A program made the translations under genes and the position numbers. The notes under the pieces were generated by a model. It saw only the letters and a list, made by a program, of their open reading frames with translations, did no database searches and was not told where the DNA came from. Source: a virus. Taken from it: a stretch of DNA of 29,523 nt. Positions 189-26,647 of the stretch are shown piece after piece. The first letter of the stretch is position 1; each line of letters starts with the position of its first letter. Where the stretch lies: the UHGV virus genome UHGV-1542943. One strand, written 5' to 3'.

Positions 189-203
189 TTACCTTAAAGG
201 TAT
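189..203. promoter_or_regulatory. Operator-like palindrome TTACCTTAAAGGTAT (one mismatch to TTACC-N5-GGTAA) upstream of the integrase gene
   Basis: Member of the repeated TTACC-N5-GGTAA family; 43 bp upstream of the int start. Confidence 0.45.
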
Positions 204-3040: not shown

Positions 3041-3958
3041 TTACATAGATGTTTCGTTTAATTCTTCCCGACGAACGCTGTAAACGTCGGTGGCTTTTGC
3101 CAGCAGTTCGTCATCATCTGAAAGTTTTTGTGCAATGTATTTGTAAGCCTTATCCAGTTCGGAGACAGTGCTGTAATTCATCGCTGCGCTGGTAAAGGCC
3201 ATCAGCATTTCTTCTGGATCACGGCTATCCGCTTTACGCGTTTGCTCATCAGGCTTTTTCACTGTTTTAGCGTTGATCAGACTGTTCATGCTGGATGCTG
3301 TGCCGTGCTTTGCCTGACTTCTTGGAGTTACGTCACGTTCAATAATGTCAGGTGAGTCGATATATTTACCTTCCATTTCCTCAGCTGTGGCTTGTTGACC
3401 AATCTCCGGCCATGCTTTACGTAATGCCTGTGCCTCTGCGCATTTTGCCAACTGCGCATAAGGGCGCTTTTTCCACATGGCATTTGGTGCCGATGTGTCA
3501 CGCCCCCCAGTTGCATAGTTCTCAATCCAGTATTCTTTGGCGCTAAACTCTACGATTTCCCCGCTTGCCATTCGCTTGCTGACGGTGTACTTACACCACT
3601 GAGGGAAGGTAACCTCCACTCCTGAAAGCGTTTGTGTTACATCTGGACCGAACTCAGGTTCATTAGCGCCTGCGTAATCGCCGGAACGGTAGGCCTGAAT
3701 GCGATAAAGTCCAATGCCAGGCATGACCACGTCGCGCCATTCATTCTTTCCACTCTTCGAGTCTTTAACACTCATTGGTACCTGGTGTACCGGCTTAAGA
3801 AGAGGATCGAGTTGACGCGCCCGGCAGTAATCGACTGCCATCATTACCGATTCATCTTTTGCCCCAGGGTAAATACTGTTTTTCAGAGCGCTCCATGTAA
3901 CTTCATCGATTCCCCGAATAGCCAACACATCATTGGTGATTGCAATTTCGTTGCTCAT
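3041..3958 (-). CDS. recT: RecT/Bet-family single-strand annealing protein
   Basis: 305 aa from ATG at 3958, which overlaps the exonuclease stop (ATGA). Typical RecT features, an acidic C-terminus, and position beside an exonuclease gene. Confidence 0.8.
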   Translation of the reverse strand: MSNEIAITNDVLAIRGIDEVTWSALKNSIYPGAKDESVMMAVDYCRARQLDPLLKPVHQVPMSVKDSKSGKNEWRDVVMPGIGLYRIQAYRSGDYAGANEPEFGPDVTQTLSGVEVTFPQWCKYTVSKRMASGEIVEFSAKEYWIENYATGGRDTSAPNAMWKKRPYAQLAKCAEAQALRKAWPEIGQQATAEEMEGKYIDSPDIIERDVTPRSQAKHGTASSMNSLINAKTVKKPDEQTRKADSRDPEEMLMAFTSAAMNYSTVSELDKAYKYIAQKLSDDDELLAKATDVYSVRREELNETSM

Positions 3959-5246: not shown

Positions 5247-5261
5247 TTACCGTTGAGGTAA
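5247..5261. promoter_or_regulatory. Operator TTACCGTTGAGGTAA (perfect palindrome), leftward early promoter region
   Basis: Perfect TTACC-N5-GGTAA; followed by GGTAATAAT, a -10-like element. Confidence 0.6.
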
Positions 5262-5308
5262 TAATTATGCGTATCTGGTTTGATGTCAATAGATATGAGT
5301 TAAAAAAA

Positions 5309-5323
5309 TTACCCATTAGGTAA
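5309..5323. promoter_or_regulatory. Operator TTACCCATTAGGTAA (perfect palindrome), leftward early promoter region
   Basis: Second perfect site 62 bp from the first, between the repressor terminator and the early-left genes. Confidence 0.6.
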
Positions 5324-5334
5324 TCGAATAGGCA

Positions 5335-5360
5335 ATAAAAAAGCCGCCAGAAGGCGGCTT
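5335..5360 (-). terminator. Rho-independent terminator downstream of the repressor gene
   Basis: Hairpin GCCGCC-agaa-GGCGGC with TTTTTTATT following on the minus strand. Confidence 0.65.
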
Positions 5361-5380: not shown

Positions 5381-5965
5381 TTATTGTTTGTTTTTTTCGT
5401 TCTGGTTGATGACAAATTCAATGTAACTTTCGATCTTTGCTTTCTCGGTTTCGGGTAACAATGCGTAGCGCGAGCGATCATAGTTGATGGTCGCAGGGTC
5501 GTGCGGGTGAATCAGTAATTCATAGCCGTGACGCCCGAATGCGGATGCAACATTCTCCAGGGTGGAAATGGAAACGCTGACCTCATTGTTTAACAGGCGG
5601 CTGATTGTCACCTGGGCGACGCCGGATGCGCGGTGTAGTTTTCCCTGCGTTGAAAGGTCGCGGCTTTCGCTCATCCAGCGTTCCAGGTTGTGAGCCGCCA
5701 GCTGACCTATATCGCTCGGGCCGACAGGCTGAAAACCTTCCTGAGAAAGCGAGCGATCGATATCAAGCCAGTTACGGGGTTTATTGGCGGCAGCTTCAAT
5801 TTTTCGTGCAACCTGGTCGCCGATAACCTTCTTGCCAAGAGCCCAGCGGTTTACCAGATTTGCCTGAGTTCCAAGTTTTTCTGCCATCCGCGTCTGAACA
5901 CCATTGAATTCACGGTCGATCAAGTCGTTGAGATTTTGCCTGCGGACGTCCTGGATACTTTTCAT
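5381..5965 (-). CDS. Prophage repressor-like protein with two helix-turn-helix domains and no LexA-type peptidase domain
   Basis: 194 aa. First HTH around VQTRMAEKLGTQANLVNRWALGKKVIGDQVARKI; second XRE-like HTH around LHRASGVAQVTISRLLNNEVSVSISTLENVASAFG. No S24 Ser/Lys autocleavage module seen. Divergent from the Cro-like gene. Confidence 0.65.
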   Translation of the reverse strand: MKSIQDVRRQNLNDLIDREFNGVQTRMAEKLGTQANLVNRWALGKKVIGDQVARKIEAAANKPRNWLDIDRSLSQEGFQPVGPSDIGQLAAHNLERWMSESRDLSTQGKLHRASGVAQVTISRLLNNEVSVSISTLENVASAFGRHGYELLIHPHDPATINYDRSRYALLPETEKAKIESYIEFVINQNEKNKQ

Positions 5966-6020
5966 TTTCTGGAAAATCGCCTCATATATGAATCAGTAGA
6001 TGATTCAATTTAAAGCAATA

Positions 6021-6035
6021 TTACCCAACAGGTAA
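6021..6035. promoter_or_regulatory. Operator TTACCCAACAGGTAA (perfect), rightward operator site 1
   Basis: Perfect palindrome in the divergent repressor/cro intergenic region. Confidence 0.6.
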
Positions 6036-6037
6036 AT

Positions 6038-6052
6038 GCACCTCATAGGTAA
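6038..6052. promoter_or_regulatory. Degenerate operator GCACCTCATAGGTAA, rightward operator site 2
   Basis: Right half-site perfect, left half degenerate; 17 bp centre-to-centre from site 1. Confidence 0.4.
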
Positions 6053-6068
6053 CTATCCTTGATTTTTG

Positions 6069-6083
6069 TTACCTTATGGGTGA
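6069..6083. promoter_or_regulatory. Near-perfect operator TTACCTTATGGGTGA, rightward operator site 3, overlapping a candidate rightward promoter
   Basis: Lies between a TTGATT -35-like hexamer and a GAATAT -10-like hexamer upstream of the Cro-like gene. Confidence 0.45.
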
Positions 6084-6119
6084 ATATTTATTATCTGAAA
6101 TAAATATCAGGCAATAGCT

Positions 6120-6350
6120 ATGAGCGATAACGGACATTTCGATTTCAAAAAGCACTGGCTTGCACTTACTCCGGATGAGCGTGAAGCCTTCGCACAGGAA
6201 GCCGGAACGACGAGTCACTATATCCAGACTCACTTAACAGGTAAGCGCAAAATGCCAGGTAAAGTATTGATGAATGGGCTTTTTAAAGCCTGTAAAACAA
6301 GACAATGGCTGCGCTCAAAAGCAGAACTGGCATACTTCTTCTACTCATGA
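6120..6350 (+). CDS. Cro/YdaS-like small HTH regulator
   Basis: 76 aa, divergent from the repressor; LTPDEREAFAQEAGTTSHYIQTHLTGKRKMP resembles Cro/YdaS-type HTH proteins. Confidence 0.6.
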   Translation: MSDNGHFDFKKHWLALTPDEREAFAQEAGTTSHYIQTHLTGKRKMPGKVLMNGLFKACKTRQWLRSKAELAYFFYS

Positions 6351-6372
6351 TATCCAGCTACAACCCTCTGTA

Positions 6373-6395
6373 GACCGCCACCCGGCGGTCTTTTC
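6373..6395 (+). terminator. Rho-independent terminator between the Cro-like gene and the replication genes
   Basis: GACCGCC-accc-GGCGGTC followed by TTTT. Confidence 0.6.
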
Positions 6396-6500
6396 ATATC
6401 TATTCGTACCTCAAAGGTAATAAATAACCAAATCTGGTTGATCTTTTTTTTGTGTCAGCACAAAATGACCGTAATCCCAATACTAATAACAGGGCTTACC

Positions 6501-14631: not shown

Positions 14632-15479
14632 ATGTGCATGGGTAGCTCACCATCAGTGCCTGCAACACCAGAAGTTCAGGCAGCACCACAGGAGCAGGAT
14701 GCCGCCGTTGTTGATGCCCGCGACGAAGAAACACGTCGCCGTCGCGCTGCTGCTGGTCGTAGTTCTACGCTGCTTACCGTGCGGAATATACAATCAGTGT
14801 TTCTGGTGGTGCGTACTTCACCAGTAGTGATGTCGGCGCGCAACTACAGTTCCCTTATACCGGAACTGATCCTGATACTGGCGATGAGGTGTCAAAAGAA
14901 TTACGTTGCGACATTATTTCTGTAACCAGCAATACCGCTGTAGTGGTTCGTGCTAACAGGAACGTCCCGCCATCCCTCAGGAATGTGGCCACCACGAACT
15001 GGCAGATGGCGCGCCGGACATTTGGAGGCCTGTCTCATCTTGAAGGCCAGACCGTAAACATTCTCTCTGATGCGAACGTGGAACCACAGAAAGTAGTTTC
15101 CGGAGGTGCCGTCACGCTGGAATCTCCGGGGGCTGTAGTGCACATCGGCCTGCCAATAACTGCTGAATTCGAAACACTGGATATCAACATTAGCGGACAG
15201 GAAACGCTGCTGGACAAAAAACAGGTGATCCCGTCCGTTACTCTGGTTGTGAATGCCAGTCGCGGCATCTGGGCGACTACGCCCGGCGGTAAATGGTACG
15301 AATATCCACAGCGTGAATTCGAGTTCTACGATGATCCTGTTGATGATGCTACCGGAAAAGTAGAAGTGAAACTGGACAGTAACTGGGGCAAAAACGGACG
15401 TGTAAAAATCCGTCAGCTTGACCCGTTGCCGCTGTCTGTTCTTGCCGTTATTCCTCGCCTTACTGTTGGGGGATTCTGA
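14632..15479 (+). pseudogene. Virion structural gene with an apparent single-base frameshift near 14770-14780
   Basis: Frame starting at ATG 14632 (GGAG RBS) gives MCMGSSPSVPATPEVQ..AAAGRSSTLLT; a different frame is open from 14763 to the stop at 15477-15479 (..SGGAYFTSSDVGAQLQFPYTGTD..), and that stop overlaps the next gene's start. Confidence 0.4.
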
Positions 15480-23575: not shown

Positions 23576-23600
23576 CACAAAAAAGCCCGCAACGCGGGCT
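23576..23600 (-). terminator. Rho-independent terminator for the minus-strand toxin operon
   Basis: GCCCGC-gttg-GCGGGC followed by TTTTTT on the minus strand, immediately after the stop at 23600-23602. Confidence 0.65.
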
Positions 23601-24137
23601 TATTCCTTCCATTTATCAGAAAAAAGATCTTCTTCTAAAGGCATTGGTTCTGTTTTTGTTTTCTGAAAGAATTGATAACTGATAGTGATTGCTGCCTCTT
23701 TAAACTCTTCTTGCTCAGTTATGTTGTGGGCATCTGCGTCAACAAAAAACATAACCAGCGCATCACGATTGTGATTTACCGAATAAACTAAAAAGCAATC
23801 ACTTGTTGGTATGCATTTTACTTGCACAGACGCTATATGCATCCCAAGATGATTTTTTACCAGTGTGTTTTTTATCACTATCTTCTGGAATATAGTCTTG
23901 GTTATCGACATGAGTATGCCTGACATTTAGTTTAAGCATTTCTGTCGGACGAGCAAATGCAGCATCTTTACCAAGAGATGGATGGTATCCCGTTTTCCAA
24001 TACTGGGTAAAGGCATCAGATACTTTCTTCAGCTCAAGATCAGATGCACAAAGGGCCGAGAAATTTTGCGTATGCAATACTCGACCCTTATATCTGACAA
24101 TTTGATTTTTATCATTCTGCGACGCAGACGAACTCAT
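23600..24137 (-). pseudogene. YafO-like toxin gene split across two overlapping frames (23799-24137 and 23600-23926)
   Basis: Frame A (MSSSASQ...LGKDAAFARPTEMLKLNVRHTHV) and frame B (..SDCFLVYSVNHNRDALVMFFV..) each resemble consecutive parts of E. coli YafO as recalled from memory (..FGRDALY...VAHIHL..., ..AHLVYCQGAFDEQAWLL..). The 128-nt overlap contains two T6/A6 homopolymer tracts (23853-23858, 23868-23873). Confidence 0.4.
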
Positions 24138-24291
24138 AATTTTCCTTATTGTTACGAGAATCAAAGAAAGCGCGGGATACGCGACTTGCGTGATCTTTTG
24201 TCATAGTAACTTTTACGTACTCTACGCTTCCATTGAAAGAACGTCTTGCGGCAGCTTGCGCTCTACGCATCTGCAATTTTTCGTTTCGCAT
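24112..24291 (-). CDS. Small basic protein (59 aa) upstream of and overlapping the toxin-like gene; candidate antitoxin
   Basis: MRNEKLQMRRAQAAARRSFNGSVEYVKVTMTKDHASRVSRAFF...; its stop overlaps the toxin start by 26 nt, and the toxin ATG has an AAGGAAAA RBS. Not similar to YafN by eye. Confidence 0.4.
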   Translation of the reverse strand: MRNEKLQMRRAQAAARRSFNGSVEYVKVTMTKDHASRVSRAFFDSRNNKENYEFVCVAE

Positions 24292-24351: not shown

Positions 24352-24366
24352 TTACCCTTGAGGTAA
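24352..24366. promoter_or_regulatory. Operator TTACCCTTGAGGTAA (perfect)
   Basis: Between the antirepressor gene end and the toxin operon start. Confidence 0.6.
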
Positions 24367-24438: not shown

Positions 24439-25149
24439 TCAGAAGAACCCAGCCTTGTCGTTGATGTACTCCGCGTGCGTCTGGATATCACGCAGGCATT
24501 TGCTCACACCGACGATGTAGCAGAACATGGTGGTCAGTTCCGCCGCCGCGCCCGATACGTCATGCCCGTCTTCCTGTAACTGGTTCAGCAAATTCATCAG
24601 CAGTGAGTTCTCCGTCAGGCCGAGAACACCAGACGGCGAGTGAATCAGGCTGCGGTAGCCGGGCTTCAGTGGGGCACTGTAGGTTTTGTTCTCTATCTTC
24701 ATCGCCTGCATCACTGCTGATGCTGTGGCGTTTGCAACCTGGTCGGCAACCATCTTTATGCGTTCTTCCTGCGGGAGCGAGTTTTTAATGTAACTTCCGG
24801 TGCGGCGGATCTGAGGAAGAACCTCACCTGTAACCCATTTACGAAAGCGGTAGGGGATAGTGCCTGGTGTCACTGCGTCGCGACAGCGGAGGATCAGTGT
24901 GTAGAGGCCTGACTCGGAGATGATGTTGATCTCTTTTACTCGGCTGTCAAAAATTGCACGATGTTCATGCCCTATGTTGAACATAGACCTTTCATCATCA
25001 TCCAGTTTTTCAAGTGCTTGGGTGACGTTTTGGATACGCAGCGCACTACAAACGTCTTGGGCTACAAACCATGGTTGGCCATCGATAATGATGGAACGGA
25101 TAGGGTTAACAGATTCAAATTTGAAGATGGCAGTTTGAGCATTAGCCAT
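24439..25149 (-). CDS. Bro-N domain antirepressor (Ant-like)
   Basis: N-terminal ..FKFESVNPIRSIIIDGQPWFVAQDVCSALRIQNVTQALEKLDDDE is a classic Bro-N signature; C-terminal antirepressor-type domain; ATG at 25149 with a GGAG RBS. Confidence 0.8.
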   Translation of the reverse strand: MANAQTAIFKFESVNPIRSIIIDGQPWFVAQDVCSALRIQNVTQALEKLDDDERSMFNIGHEHRAIFDSRVKEINIISESGLYTLILRCRDAVTPGTIPYRFRKWVTGEVLPQIRRTGSYIKNSLPQEERIKMVADQVANATASAVMQAMKIENKTYSAPLKPGYRSLIHSPSGVLGLTENSLLMNLLNQLQEDGHDVSGAAAELTTMFCYIVGVSKCLRDIQTHAEYINDKAGFF

Positions 25150-25418
25150 GGTGGTTATCTCCACTTAGTGATTTTAATCACCACCGCAACGCCAATTACT
25201 GGTGGTGAACTGGACAAGGTTGGCGTACCGGCCTAAGTGGTACCGGCGTCCTTTCGGACCCCTGCCCAGCCCACCATAATTCGGATATAGCTGTGCTTAA
25301 CGCATAAAAAAAACACGTCTGGCGTGGTATGCGCCACTTAGTAACTCGGGACGCCAATCCCGGCACTGGATTTTGCCAGTACCCGATTACTATGGCACAA
25401 GAGGAGTGCGATGTAAAT

Positions 25419-25433
25419 TTACCGCAAAGGTAA
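25419..25433. promoter_or_regulatory. Operator TTACCGCAAAGGTAA (perfect)
   Basis: In the 380-bp divergent intergenic region between the antirepressor and the 25547 gene. Confidence 0.6.
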
Positions 25434-25511: not shown

Positions 25512-25526
25512 TTACCTTTAAGGTAA
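25512..25526. promoter_or_regulatory. Operator TTACCTTTAAGGTAA (perfect)
   Basis: 20 bp upstream of the ATG at 25547. Confidence 0.6.
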
Positions 25527-25546: not shown

Positions 25547-26275
25547 ATGGAAGTTTTCTGGATAGTTGTTGGTGTGGTTGCGGTGATTATTTACGTTATC
25601 AACCAGAACAAGACTAAGATCTCTGATCGTACGGTCGTTAATCATAACAAAACGATAAAGACCGAAGATGGGGAGATAACGATTAATCGTACACAGGTGA
25701 TAGAACACACCTCTACTCAGTTTCAAAAAACTGGAGGTAATGCGCCTAATATTTCCGCACCTCCTGCTTATGATAGTGCGGTAATCCAGACATATTATAA
25801 ACAGCAGGAGTTAGCAAAAGAGAGGCAACTGATTCAGCCAAAGCCGTTTACAGCTGAGCTTCCACCTGGAGTGTCAACGCGTCCGGCATATCATGGAAGA
25901 TTCCCTGGTGATGACATATCGTCTCAGTCATCTAAAAAAGCACCTCAGGCAGTATCAGAGCCAGCAAGAATACCTTCTGTATCGCCGCCAAAAGAAGAAT
26001 CAGCTAACAGAGTTTCAAGTGGTAGCAAGCAGTGCTTGCGATGCAGAATAAACCTACCATATGAAAAATTCAGGAAATCGTCAAAAAATCCAGATGGATT
26101 GACTAAGTGGTGTGCAAGGTGTCTCGATGGCCCAAAGAATACACGCCATATGAAGTGGTGCCCAATTTGTAATGTCCGCAGAAAACGAACCAGCTTTTAC
26201 CCTAATAATCAAAATGCGGACGGATTAATGGCATGGTGCAAAACGTGCTGGGATGAGCACAAAGCGAAACGATAG
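25547..26275 (+). CDS. Membrane-anchored protein with two C-terminal C4 zinc-ribbon-like units
   Basis: N-terminal TM helix MEVFWIVVGVVAVIIYVI, low-complexity linker, then CLRC..(PDGLTKW)CARC..(KW)CPIC..(DGLMAW)CKTC; GAGG RBS. Confidence 0.55.
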   Translation: MEVFWIVVGVVAVIIYVINQNKTKISDRTVVNHNKTIKTEDGEITINRTQVIEHTSTQFQKTGGNAPNISAPPAYDSAVIQTYYKQQELAKERQLIQPKPFTAELPPGVSTRPAYHGRFPGDDISSQSSKKAPQAVSEPARIPSVSPPKEESANRVSSGSKQCLRCRINLPYEKFRKSSKNPDGLTKWCARCLDGPKNTRHMKWCPICNVRRKRTSFYPNNQNADGLMAWCKTCWDEHKAKR

Positions 26276-26297: not shown

Positions 26298-26570
26298 TTA
26301 CCGGGTTTGTTTTCGTAATTGTTCGGCACAATAGTCGAGATGTGTTTGCAGATCCTGCATAGACATCTGTGAGCTGGTGACGTAGTTAATCAGTGCAGTC
26401 AGTTCGGCAAGTGGGCCATCGACATTAAATCCATCCTTATCGAGATCCCGGAGTAATTTCATCAAGTGCGATCCCTCCACCAGTGACCTGACGCCTCCCG
26501 GCGTGTGAATCCTTTCGGTAAATCCGTCTTCCAGTGGATAGTGATACTGCTGCATCTTAATCTTCTCCAT
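26298..26570 (-). CDS. Stand-alone paralog of the antirepressor C-terminal domain (85-90 aa)
   Basis: ..RIHTPGGVRSLVEGSHLMKLLRDLDKDGFNVDGPLAELTALINYV..DLQTHLDY aligns with Ant ..LIHSPSGVLGLTENSLLMNLLNQLQEDGHDVSGAAAELTTMFCYI..DIQTHAEY at roughly 45% identity by eye. ATG at 26555 has a GGAGAAG RBS. Confidence 0.55.
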   Translation of the reverse strand: MEKIKMQQYHYPLEDGFTERIHTPGGVRSLVEGSHLMKLLRDLDKDGFNVDGPLAELTALINYVTSSQMSMQDLQTHLDYCAEQLRKQTR

Positions 26571-26632
26571 GCAATAACTGTATATTTATACAGTATCAAA
26601 TAATTTGTTTGCTATCCAGCACGTTTTGCAAA

Positions 26633-26647
26633 TTACCTGAAAGGTAA
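26633..26647. promoter_or_regulatory. Operator TTACCTGAAAGGTAA (perfect) upstream of the tailspike gene
   Basis: Perfect palindrome in the divergent region; a GGTAAT half-site lies at 26689. Confidence 0.6.

Follow-up and report, generated by a model that had tools for sequence, protein, structure and literature searches.

Antirepressors acting on a non-cleavable, three-domain repressor are the probable basis of the immunity switch in a phiV10-like Escherichia coli prophage

Introduction

How does a prophage leave lysogeny when its repressor carries no recognisable self-cleavage domain? The question is raised by positions 5381-6350 of UHGV-1542943, a virus genome of 29,523 nt (the window, by which we mean the whole stretch of DNA analysed), where the repressor gene rep and a gene in the cro position diverge from an operator region (Table 1). 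The region very probably holds the central switch for immunity in an E. coli prophage of the phiV10/epsilon15-like (Uetakevirus) group, integrated at guaA and operated by the Rep/Ant mechanism set out below. The core of this switch is largely known, as the repressor is identical to those of published phages and the mechanism has been solved for the homologue from SPC32H; the window adds a few undescribed extras.

Table 1. Positions of the switch and associated elements in the window (nt; aa for protein domains).
Feature	Position	Strand	Remarks
Rep-type operator upstream of int	189-203		
Leftward early promoter module	5247-5323	-	operators 5247-5261 and 5309-5323, 62 bp apart
Candidate leftward early promoter hexamers	-35 TTGACA 5289-5284; -10 AATTAT 5266-5261	-	between the operator pair
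Intrinsic terminator downstream of rep	5341-5360	-	terminator scan; same place annotated in phiV10
rep, 194-aa repressor	5381-5965	-	ORF check; called non-cleavable
Rep C-terminal tetramerisation/Ant-binding helix	aa ~156-194; nt 5384-5500		role from SPC32H structure, per passages of PMC9986798, PMC9638917
Rep middle HTH_3-like dimerisation domain	aa ~89-155; nt 5501-5701		role from the same passages
Rep N-terminal HTH DNA-binding domain	aa 1-72; nt 5750-5965		role from the same passages
Operator O1	6021-6035		perfect TTACC-N5-GGTAA, TTACCCAACAGGTAA; motif scan, lineage comparison
Operator O2	6038-6052		GCACC-N5-GGTAA, GCACCTCATAGGTAA; 2 mismatches; position conserved
Candidate -35 TTGATT, rightward promoter	6059-6064	+	conserved in window, Tyrion, SPC32H, BUCT711
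Alternative rightward promoter from scanner	-35 TTGTTA at 6066; -10 TATTAT ending 6094		
Operator O3	6069-6083		TTACC-N5-GGTGA, TTACCTTATGGGTGA; 1 mismatch; overlaps rightward promoter core
76-aa HTH protein, cro position	6120-6350	+	PHROG 35 'transcriptional repressor'
Terminator 3' of 76-aa HTH gene	6372-6391		
Further intergenic Rep-type operators	6406-6420, 10990-11004, 11008-11022, 13910-13924		
Second 62-bp operator pair	8352-8428 (8352-8366, 8414-8428)	+	brackets TTGATT-17-TTTAAT; next gene starts 8432
Further intergenic Rep-type operators, right part	14527-14541, 24352-24366, 25512-25526		
Bro-N::Ant-like fusion, 236 aa	24439-25149	-	
Ant-like domain of fusion	aa 153-234; nt 24448-24693		5d50_E, E=1e-13; PHROG 450, E=4e-36
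Bro-N domain of fusion	aa 17-112		Pfam PF02498, E=1e-19
C4-type antisense RNA	25198-25281	-	Rfam RF01695, 66 bits (gathering score 45)
isrK-like leader RNA with own terminator	25308-25382	-	RF01394, 58.6 bits (gathering score 50)
Terminator hairpin and U-run of isrK-like leader	25336-25312		
Rep-type operator at isrK-C4-bro unit	25419-25433		abuts candidate -10 TATCAT 25438-25433
Candidate -35 TTGATT of isrK-C4-bro unit	25462-25457		
ant, 85-aa antirepressor	26298-26555	-	88% identical to SPC32H Ant; PHROG 450
LexA box	26576-26595		AACTGTATATTTATACAGTA; 18/20 consensus positions; 21 nt upstream of ant ATG
Rep-type operator between ant and tailspike gene	26633-26647		conserved in SPC32H

Results

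The Rep repressor

Pfam detected HTH_3 in two stretches of the 194-aa Rep protein, the best at aa 106-147, together with weak matches to HTH domains of the YdaS/DUF739 type at aa 20-61, and an AlphaFold (AF2) model of the protein was all-helical, consisting of two HTH domains followed by a C-terminal helix. Peptidase_S24 was not found in Rep by Pfam even at E<=1, although the same search does pick up S24 in the cI of Pseudomonas phage PseuP_224, which shares the Rep-type N-terminal domain. The only significant Foldseek matches of the Rep model were 5d50/5d4z, an S24 fold was absent among the matches, and no Ala-Gly or Cys-Gly cleavage site can be read in the sequence. The preliminary description of this DNA, which had a 194-aa repressor with two HTH units, no S24 module and little prospect of RecA-stimulated autocleavage, is borne out on each of these points. 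Despite the PseuP_224 protein, in which an S24 peptidase is joined to a distant relative of the Rep N-terminal domain, the absence of S24 by Pfam and Foldseek, the all-helical model and the missing cleavage dipeptides leave a negligible probability that Rep is inactivated by RecA-stimulated self-cleavage in the style of lambda cI or LexA, and RecA-dependent cleavage was rejected. The SPC32H repressor is likewise said, in work of Kim and Ryu from 2013, to stay uncleaved in the SOS response.

A phmmer search against the PDB aligned Rep over its full length (aa 1-190) with 5d50_A (E=4e-42); identity to SPC32H Rep is 42% overall, 33% in the middle domain and 46% in the C-terminal domain. According to PMC9986798 and PMC9638917, both of which summarise Kim et al. 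2016, SPC32H Rep is a tetramer in which the N-terminal HTH binds DNA and the second HTH-like domain dimerises, and good DNA binding requires the tetramer. Its aromatic tetramer-interface residues F187 and F190 (PMC9986798) align with Y181 and F184 of the window's Rep by sequence alignment only, and F184 is invariant in 37 homologues. NCBIfam searches were uninformative for four proteins, namely Rep, Ant, the Bro-N protein and the cro-position protein. On these comparisons Rep is a three-domain, putatively non-cleavable repressor of the SPC32H type.

The three-site operator and rightward promoter

The gap between rep and the cro-position gene contains one perfect and two degenerate copies of a palindrome, as had been proposed. 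Their centre-to-centre distances are 17 and 31 bp, compared with about 24 and 23 bp in lambda, and the suggested lambda OR-like spacing is therefore abandoned. The three-site layout is also kept in Tyrion, in a Klebsiella phage and in SPC32H, where the spacing is 17/30; the O2 copy, degenerate in the window, has no mismatch in either SPC32H or the Klebsiella phage. The operator arms are invariant across four lineages while the N5 centre and flanks drift, the centre being C-rich at position 6 in the window and A/T-rich in SPC32H. The recognition-helix residues N36, R40 and W41 of Rep are invariant in the homologue alignment, matching the invariant TTACC arms in the four lineages.

Scans with the sigma-70 consensus gave no more matches than in shuffled sequence; promoter assignments are weak on this account and lean on hexamers conserved between lineages rather than on the scanner. 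The claim that O3 lies within the rightward promoter holds as far as the overlap is concerned, with TTGATT present in four lineages, but not in its lambda-like spacing. The 76-aa protein had no Pfam, NCBIfam or PDB match, and we infer its Cro-like role from position only.

A small antirepressor gene behind a LexA box

The antirepressor encoded by ant matches crystallised Ant (PDB 5d50_E) at E=4e-47. A near-consensus LexA box occurs once in the window, against 0 expected, and stands upstream of ant in SPC32H, phiV10 and ZX5 also, making four phages with the window. A LexA box was looked for near the Bro-N gene and none was found; one further perfect CTGT-N8-ACAG, at 13997-14012, is poor in its centre. 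An Ant-like domain is encoded in 35 of 50,697 phage records, and each of the 35 has a full-length Rep too, itself present in 36 records; this strict co-occurrence lends indirect support to an action of Ant on Rep. The public records label the small Ant 'hypothetical protein', and the LexA box and the isrK/C4 RNAs (see below) are unannotated in those inspected. Kim and Ryu are reported to have identified the LexA-controlled antirepressor of SPC32H, in 2013, as its small Ant. The antirepressor-driven induction foreseen in the preliminary description is thus supported, but its main actor, the LexA-controlled Ant, had been missed.

Also suggested at first was that a Rep monomer reads both operator half-sites with its two HTH units, the Bro-N protein being the (only) inducer. 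Two HTH-type domains are truly present in Rep (Pfam, AlphaFold), and the Bro-N protein is supported as an antirepressor candidate by its homology to Ant, by Pfam and by overexpression data from ZX5 (PMC9782041). TTACC/GGTAA is, however, an exact inverted repeat that needs two identical reading heads, and no similarity between the two Rep HTH domains was detectable by sequence comparison; in SPC32H Rep, moreover, the second domain serves dimerisation and DNA is bound well only by the tetramer. Induction by the Bro-N protein only is at odds with the highly conserved small Ant behind its LexA box and with SPC32H, which has no Bro-N gene and is cited, in PMC7380047 with reference to Kim & Ryu 2013, as induced through a LexA-controlled antirepressor. 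This combined reading is very improbable, and a multimeric Rep countered by the small Ant is preferred.

Operator copies across the prophage

The motif TTACC-N5-GGTAA, allowing at most one mismatch, has 16 matches in the window compared with 0.49 expected, a number reached in 0/100 shuffles. All copies are intergenic; the preliminary description had correctly placed operators in the divergent region but overlooked this scatter over the whole prophage. The leftward 62-bp pair is also present in phiV10, SPC32H and Tyrion, with a 63-bp pair in BUCT711, and the operator layout of the prophage is conserved in SPC32H and phiV10. Several of the scattered sites directly adjoin a -10 hexamer, in a promoter module that recurs. 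Operators of the P1 C1 repressor are similarly scattered around the P1 genome. The epsilon15 genome paper reportedly already gives scattered ATTACC...GGTAAT sites; a literature text search for strings of this type found nothing.

Some of the sites fall at the boundaries of late genes and accessory genes, places at which classical repressors are not active, and one marks a mosaic junction and has its central 5 nt inverted between phiV10 and the window. These two features favour the alternative that the copies outside the rep/cro gap are read by a different regulator of the phage, be it the cro-position protein or some late-gene factor, or act as recombination or module-boundary signals. Against it, the identical motif builds the three-site switch array, its arms stay invariant as centre and flanks drift, sites abut promoter hexamers, and pairs spaced by 62 bp would fit a protein that has two DNA-binding units, for instance a tetramer. 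We regard the alternative as improbable, and take the scattered copies to be probable Rep operators.

The isrK/C4 leader and the Bro-N::Ant-like protein

The Bro-N antirepressor of the preliminary description is a real ORF with an Ant-like domain; it lies on the minus strand, is not the sole antirepressor candidate, and is preceded by an isrK/C4 RNA leader that had escaped notice. A c4-a1b1 target match at 25343-25395, below threshold (RF03163, 43.4 against a gathering score of 46.7), overlaps the isrK-like leader. The C4 loop CCACUUAG and a single-stranded ACGCCAA are complementary to upstream targets at 25334-25341 and 25351-25357, and the same words also fit downstream targets at 25161-25168 and 25189-25195; this second set overlaps the Shine-Dalgarno sequence of bro, GGAG (25159-25162). 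Where the window has this loop, phiV10 and ZX5 have CCUUUUAG, and both targets change to match it, from CUAAGUGG in the window to CUAAAAGG in phiV10/ZX5; the covariation of loop and targets between the alleles amounts to compensatory changes. In ZX5 the C4 RNA coincides in part with a coding sequence labelled 'ash family protein'. Upstream of bro there is only a 20-codon TTG ORF (25155-25217), and an icd gene is absent. The isrK/C4 leader is a predicted gate on the Bro-N gene, of the P1 immI / Gifsy-1 type.

The Ant-like domain of the fusion is 42% identical to the window's own Ant, and the C-terminal 155 aa of the protein are identical to the ZX5 ORF4 antirepressor. Overexpression of ORF4 in ZX5 led to less lysogeny, a fall in prophage titre from 1e9 to 1e6 and fewer rep transcripts, and overexpression of ZX5 Rep lowered endolysin and holin transcripts by ~99.9% (PMC9782041). 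These results bear on the window because Rep and the C-terminal domain of the Bro-N protein are identical in the two.

The Bro-N protein is a plausible antirepressor candidate. It might instead be directed at the repressors of other prophages or at some other host or phage factor: the shared domain has only 42% identity to Ant, Bro-N proteins are functionally diverse, antirepressor cross-talk between Salmonella prophages is known (PMC7380047), and the gene is frameshifted in phiV10 and hence dispensable there. Such a target other than the window's Rep is unlikely, given that the Ant-like domain is found in phage records only alongside Rep-type repressors, that ORF4 moves ZX5 off lysogeny and lowers rep transcripts (PMC9782041), and that a Rep-type operator stands at the Bro-N gene promoter.

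Discussion

In the mechanism that we propose, the N-terminal HTH of Rep would read TTACC half-sites, the middle domain, of HTH_3 fold, would serve dimerisation, and the C-terminal helix would both make tetramers and dock the antirepressor. A tetramer would comprise two DNA-reading dimers and could hold two palindromic operators at once: adjacent O1 and O2 in the rep/cro gap, with O3 over the rightward promoter, and elsewhere the 62-bp-spaced pairs that bracket promoters. With some 16 sites in nearly every intergenic region, Rep probably silences most transcription units directly. Upon DNA damage, by analogy with the homologue, active RecA would lead LexA to cleave itself and leave its box, and the Ant then made would bind the Rep C-terminal domain and take Rep off DNA without proteolysis. 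Conservation of the Rep-Ant interface is assumed here, as identity to the SPC32H proteins is 88% for Ant but only 42% for Rep. The Bro-N::Ant-like protein would bring a second, homologous Rep-binding domain; its gene would be held down by the Rep operator at its promoter, the isrK-type terminator and C4 RNA pairing with the ribosome-binding site, and the protein most likely comes into play once repression is lifted, or on infection, reinforcing or biasing the lytic choice. The prophage lacks head genes, and the switch may for this reason no longer yield phage.

Of the systems compared, SPC32H (PDB 5D50, 5D4Z; Kim & Ryu 2013, Kim et al. 2016) has in common with the window the three-domain Rep architecture, the position of the LexA box before ant, the operator motif, the three-site layout, the 62-bp operator pairs and genome synteny, but it has neither a Bro-N::Ant-like gene nor isrK/C4 RNAs. 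The switch DNA is 98-99% identical, and Rep 100% identical, to those of phiV10 and ZX5. Annotations of 'two helix-turn-helix motifs' and of a Bro-N 'anti-immunity protein' are already present in the phiV10 record, and the effects of overexpressing repressor and Bro-N antirepressor were assayed in the ZX5 paper (PMC9782041); in both sources the RNAs and the small Ant with its LexA box go unrecognised. The window differs from these two phages in being an integrated prophage that has lost ~7.3 kb by deletion in the head genes, in its C4 loop/target allele, in the N-terminal part of the Bro-N protein and in a 242-aa gene inserted between bro and ant.

The likeness to P1/P7 immI (c4 antisense RNA - icd - ant) lies in the above-threshold match to the C4 covariance model and in two loop-target sets before the antirepressor gene, one upstream and one over the ribosome-binding site, and the matching of loop and targets within each allele recalls what underlies P1/P7 heteroimmunity (PMC12197685). 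P1 and P7, however, have icd where the window has its short TTG ORF, the window's main repressor shows no relation to P1 C1, and the effector domain of its antirepressor belongs to the SPC32H Ant type. The isrK-orf45-anrP locus of Gifsy-1 (PMC4825925) also combines an isrK-type leader with a terminator, a C4/CI-like RNA and an antirepressor gene, and by analogy the short isrK-type RNA may switch on the translation of read-through mRNA. A LexA-controlled antirepressor is encoded separately in Gifsy-1 as well (PMC7380047), but Gifsy-1 belongs to another phage type with another repressor, and the upstream ORF is much shorter in the window.

Like lambda, the window has divergent repressor and cro-position genes and three graded palindromic operators that overlap promoters. 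The lambda right operator consists of 17-bp sites ~23-24 bp apart that are read by cooperating dimers. Rep, unlike lambda cI, has no S24 domain and is predicted to stay uncleaved, would by analogy with SPC32H form a tetramer with trans-paired DNA-binding domains, and has operators at about ten other intergenic regions.

The switch is present in 540 of 5,426 complete E. coli genomes. It is conceivable, at just short of an even chance, that about one in ten such genomes carries a three-layer immunity composed of a tetrameric Rep, two differently wired antirepressors with one homologous Rep-binding domain and genome-wide 62-bp clamps, the small Ant answering LexA and the SOS response and the Bro-N fusion the isrK/C4 gate with its phage-specific alleles. 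We know of no earlier description of this combination for phiV10/epsilon15-like phages. The practical value of these findings is in annotation, of the small Ant, the LexA box and the isrK/C4 RNAs. If true, the two-antirepressor wiring would be a compact, testable case of one repressor that integrates SOS and RNA-based signals, and cross-induction between related prophages, or its absence, would be predictable from their C4 loop alleles.

The repressor has two HTH domains and no peptidase

The ORFs for the 194-aa repressor (Rep) and the 76-aa protein in the cro position lie exactly where the preliminary description placed them. That description credited Rep with two helix-turn-helix (HTH) units and no S24 peptidase module, and domain and structure predictions agree on both points. 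Pfam locates HTH_3 in two stretches of Rep, most strongly at aa 106-147, gives weak Cro/YdaS-type matches at aa 20-61, and does not detect Peptidase_S24 in the protein even at E≤1; as a positive control, Pfam does detect S24 in a Pseudomonas phage cI with a Rep-like N-terminal domain. An AlphaFold model with 37 homologues as input (mean pLDDT 79) is all-helical: two HTH domains occupy aa 1-60 and 83-151, the linker at aa 74-83 is disordered, and a long helix spans aa 172-193 in the C-terminal part. A Foldseek search against the PDB found no peptidase fold for this model. In the cI of Pseudomonas phage PseuP_224 (L006 1495-2232), an N-terminal domain with 39% identity to that of Rep is fused to an S24 peptidase, and thus the same DNA-binding head occurs in cleavable and non-cleavable architectures.

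The repressors of phiV10, ZX5, PAS61, and further E. coli uetakeviruses have the same sequence as Rep (100% identity), and the phiV10 record already states 'two helix-turn-helix motifs' for its copy. Identity to the Rep proteins of Salmonella phage SPC32H and epsilon15 is 42% (for SPC32H, 53% in the N-terminal, 33% in the middle, and 46% in the C-terminal domain). Rep matches PDB 5d50_A ('Repressor') over its full length (E=4e-42), and its C-terminal two-thirds also match 5d4z; the two entries represent the SPC32H Rep-Ant complex and Rep(92-198) tetramer, respectively. PMC9986798 and PMC9638917 describe SPC32H Rep as having an N-terminal DNA-binding domain, a middle dimerization domain, and a C-terminal tetramerization domain that also binds Ant. 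According to the same papers, palindromic DNA is bound by the tetramer and weakly by the dimer, one palindrome is read by DNA-binding domains from different dimers, and two Rep dimers are bound per Ant tetramer. The SPC32H Rep interface aromatics F187 and F190 align to Y181 and F184 of the Rep studied here, and F184 is invariant across the 37 homologues.

The proposal that a single chain reads both half-sites of an operator with its two HTH units was rejected, because the operator arms form an exact inverted repeat, the two domains are not detectably similar, and the second corresponds to the dimerization domain of the homologue. The TTACC/GGTAA arms call for two identical heads, and a domain comparison detected no similarity between the two HTH-type domains of Rep. 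Pfam HTH_3 likewise falls on the dimerization domain of the solved SPC32H protein. The TTACC arms are invariant in four lineages, in step with N36, R40, and W41 in the recognition helix of the first HTH domain, which are invariant in the homologue alignment.

Operators between rep and the cro-position gene

Three operators, one perfect and two degenerate (0, 2, and 1 mismatches), occupy the gap as first described, but the lambda-like spacing ascribed to them does not hold. Measured between centers, the spacing is 17 bp for O1-O2 and 31 bp for O2-O3, compared with 17 and 30 bp for the same array in SPC32H. Lambda operators are spaced at about 24 and 23 bp, and the array is therefore analogous to the three-site lambda array without having its spacing. 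A TTGATT hexamer at 6059-6064, kept in four lineages, stands four bases ahead of O3, so that O3 overlaps the core of the candidate rightward promoter, as had been proposed. The exact -10 of this promoter and the leftward promoter are uncertain and are placed tentatively. The 76-aa protein falls in PHROG 35 ('transcriptional repressor'), aside from which no characterized relative was found in Pfam, NCBIfam, or the PDB; its Cro-like label derives from its position.

Features of the immunity and antirepressor regions
Feature	Coordinates	Strand	Remarks
Rep, 194-aa ORF	5381-5965	-	ORF prediction
76-aa ORF, cro position	6120-6350	+	ORF prediction
O1 TTACCCAACAGGTAA	6021-6035		perfect motif
O2 GCACCTCATAGGTAA	6038-6052		two mismatches
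O3 TTACCTTATGGGTGA	6069-6083		one mismatch
LexA box AACTGTATATTTATACAGTA	26576-26595		18/20 consensus positions
Ant, 85-aa ORF	26298-26555	-	starts 21 bases downstream of LexA box
isrK RNA	25308-25382	-	Rfam 58.6 bits, gathering score 50
C4 antisense RNA	25198-25281	-	Rfam 66 bits, gathering score 45
C4 a1/b1 targets	25343-25395	-	Rfam, just below threshold
First C4 target set	25334-25341, 25351-25357		within isrK leader
Second C4 target set	25161-25168, 25189-25195		directly ahead of Bro-N gene
62-bp operator pair	5247/5309		TTGACA-17-AATTAT between
62-bp operator pair	8352/8414		TTGATT-17-TTTAAT between
Motif copy			ahead of int
Motif copies			leftward early promoter
Motif copy			past terminator of cro-position gene
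Motif copies			past replication genes
Motif copies			ahead of terS
Motif copies			ahead of first head-region genes
Motif copies			around accessory genes
Motif copy			between ant and tailspike gene

A small antirepressor behind a LexA box

The expectation that the repressor is non-cleavable and that an antirepressor brings about induction was right; by analogy, the predicted SOS-linked antirepressor is the small Ant, which the preliminary description overlooked. Ant is ∼88% identical to the crystallized protein 5d50_E (E=4e-47), and the LexA box ahead of it is the one near-consensus box in the window, where 0 are expected by chance. Both the box and a nearby Rep-type operator (26633-26647) have been retained in SPC32H, phiV10, and ZX5. 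For SPC32H, Kim and Ryu reportedly found in 2013 that Rep is left uncleaved and that a LexA-box point mutation renders the phage virulent. Of 50,697 phage records, 36 encode full-length Rep and 35 an Ant-like domain, and Rep is present in all 35 of the latter. The review PMC7380047 (citing Kim & Ryu 2013) has the SOS response leading through LexA cleavage to synthesis of Ant, which inactivates the repressor by binding, not cleavage. A second perfect CTGT-N8-ACAG, CTGTACTGGTTTACAG at 13997-14012, contains G+C in its center, unlike the LexA consensus, and is probably due to chance.

The Bro-N protein as a candidate second antirepressor

The Bro-N ORF is real at 24439-25149, where the preliminary description had it, and was found on the minus strand. 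A Pfam Bro-N domain covers aa 17-112 of its product, and aa 153-234 are homologous to Ant (5d50_E, E=1e-13), being 42% identical to the Ant encoded in the window; this Ant-like part matches PHROG 450 at E=4e-36. The last 155 residues are identical to ZX5 ORF4, overexpression of which reduced the prophage titer from 1e9 to 1e6 and lowered rep transcripts by 75%; when the identical Rep was overexpressed in ZX5, endolysin and holin transcripts fell by ∼99.9% (PMC9782041). Given the Ant homology and the ORF4 overexpression effects, the earlier suggestion that the Bro-N protein is an antirepressor is reasonable, with the protein as a second antirepressor and putative Rep binder. The Bro-N::Ant-like gene is absent from the SPC32H genome. 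In phiV10 (L002 19551-20230), a frameshift inside the Ant-like domain divides the gene into p23 and p22, reflecting either pseudogenization or an error in the sequence. Compared with phiV10, the window has a gene insertion at 25547-26275 (+), separating the Bro-N unit from ant; the inserted gene encodes a 242-aa protein of PHROG 6762 with C-terminal CxxC repeats, and a Rep-type operator lies 20 nt ahead of its start codon.

In an Rfam scan, three models matched the minus strand a short way ahead of the Bro-N start codon: isrK, C4, and the C4 a1/b1 targets. Two target sets show complementarity to the C4 hairpin loop CCACUUAG and to a single-stranded ACGCCAA, and the second set overlaps the Shine-Dalgarno GGAG (25159-25162). 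Both RNAs are also present in phiV10 and ZX5, where the loop is CCUUUUAG and both targets are CUAAAAGG, so that loop and two targets carry compensatory changes at all three places; neither RNA was found in the SPC32H genome. The same design is seen in P1/P7 immI, whose c4 RNA acts at the ribosome-binding site to prevent antirepressor synthesis and sets heteroimmunity (PMC12197685), and in Gifsy-1 isrK-orf45-anrP, where short IsrK RNA activates antirepressor translation from a read-through transcript (PMC4825925). A Rep-type operator (25419-25433) abuts the candidate -10 of the isrK-C4-Bro-N unit, and expression of the Bro-N gene therefore seems to be held back at three levels.

The isrK and C4 RNAs are unannotated in the phiV10, ZX5, and RefSeq records. 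In ZX5 (L003), an 'ash family protein' CDS (1779-1892) overlaps the C4 RNA (1821-1906) and may be a spurious call or a counterpart of Gifsy-1 orf45; at that place the window has only a 20-codon TTG ORF (25155-25217). The core of operator 25419-25433 is TTTGC in the window and ZX5 and is inverted to GCAAA in phiV10 (L002 20497-20511), and upstream of it the window/ZX5 and phiV10 sequences diverge. Mosaic recombination joints may fall at operators.

State of the prophage

The att core attgagtgggaatgatt, reported for ZX5 at the 3' end of guaA (PMC9782041), is located at 38-54, so that the window opens in host DNA at the left end of the prophage. At 14774-14779, phiV10 position 3504 is joined to 10829, a loss of roughly 7.3 kb relative to phiV10 that takes out the portal, protease, and capsid genes. 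None of the phage records or complete E. coli genomes searched contains this junction. The prophage copy is probably defective, with its switch genes intact, unless the junction is an assembly error. Of 5,426 complete E. coli genomes, 540 carry the switch DNA and 536 the ant/bro region. Two overlapping ORFs at 23600-24164 (-), each matching half of PHROG 1651, are probably a frameshifted pseudogene; another E. coli genome has the gene intact, with the annotation YafO-family toxin. A tRNA-Arg (anticodon TCT) at 14128-14204 (-), also in SPC32H, phiV10, and ZX5, overlaps the ORF annotated p04 in phiV10.

Operators across the prophage

TTACC-N5-GGTAA with ≤1 mismatch occurs 16 times in the window (0.49 expected). 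All copies are intergenic, between 189 and 26647, and are found at nearly every intergenic region; those at 10990 and 11008 are inside the longest terS ORF, yet upstream of the ATG at 11025; a start there gives the 594-nt gene that the ZX5 and SPC32H records annotate as terS. SPC32H has 18 copies (0.66 expected) and phiV10 has 14 (0.64 expected) in syntenic places. At two loci, operators exactly 62 bp apart surround a promoter-like module, the downstream operator starting at the last T of the -10. The same pairs are present in phiV10, SPC32H, and Tyrion, and a Klebsiella phage has a 63-bp pair.

The system is already known as SPC32H-type antirepression, with a prophage repressor identical to published ones. 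Not found described for these phages were the Ant-homologous C-terminal domain of the Bro-N protein, the isrK/C4 gate on its gene with allele-specific covariation, and the 62-bp operator pairs bracketing promoters. The scattered putative operators, as recognized by motif, may be occupied by Rep, the cro-position protein, or both. A Rep tetramer, with two DNA-reading dimers, could hold both sites of a 62-bp pair and enclose the promoter between them.
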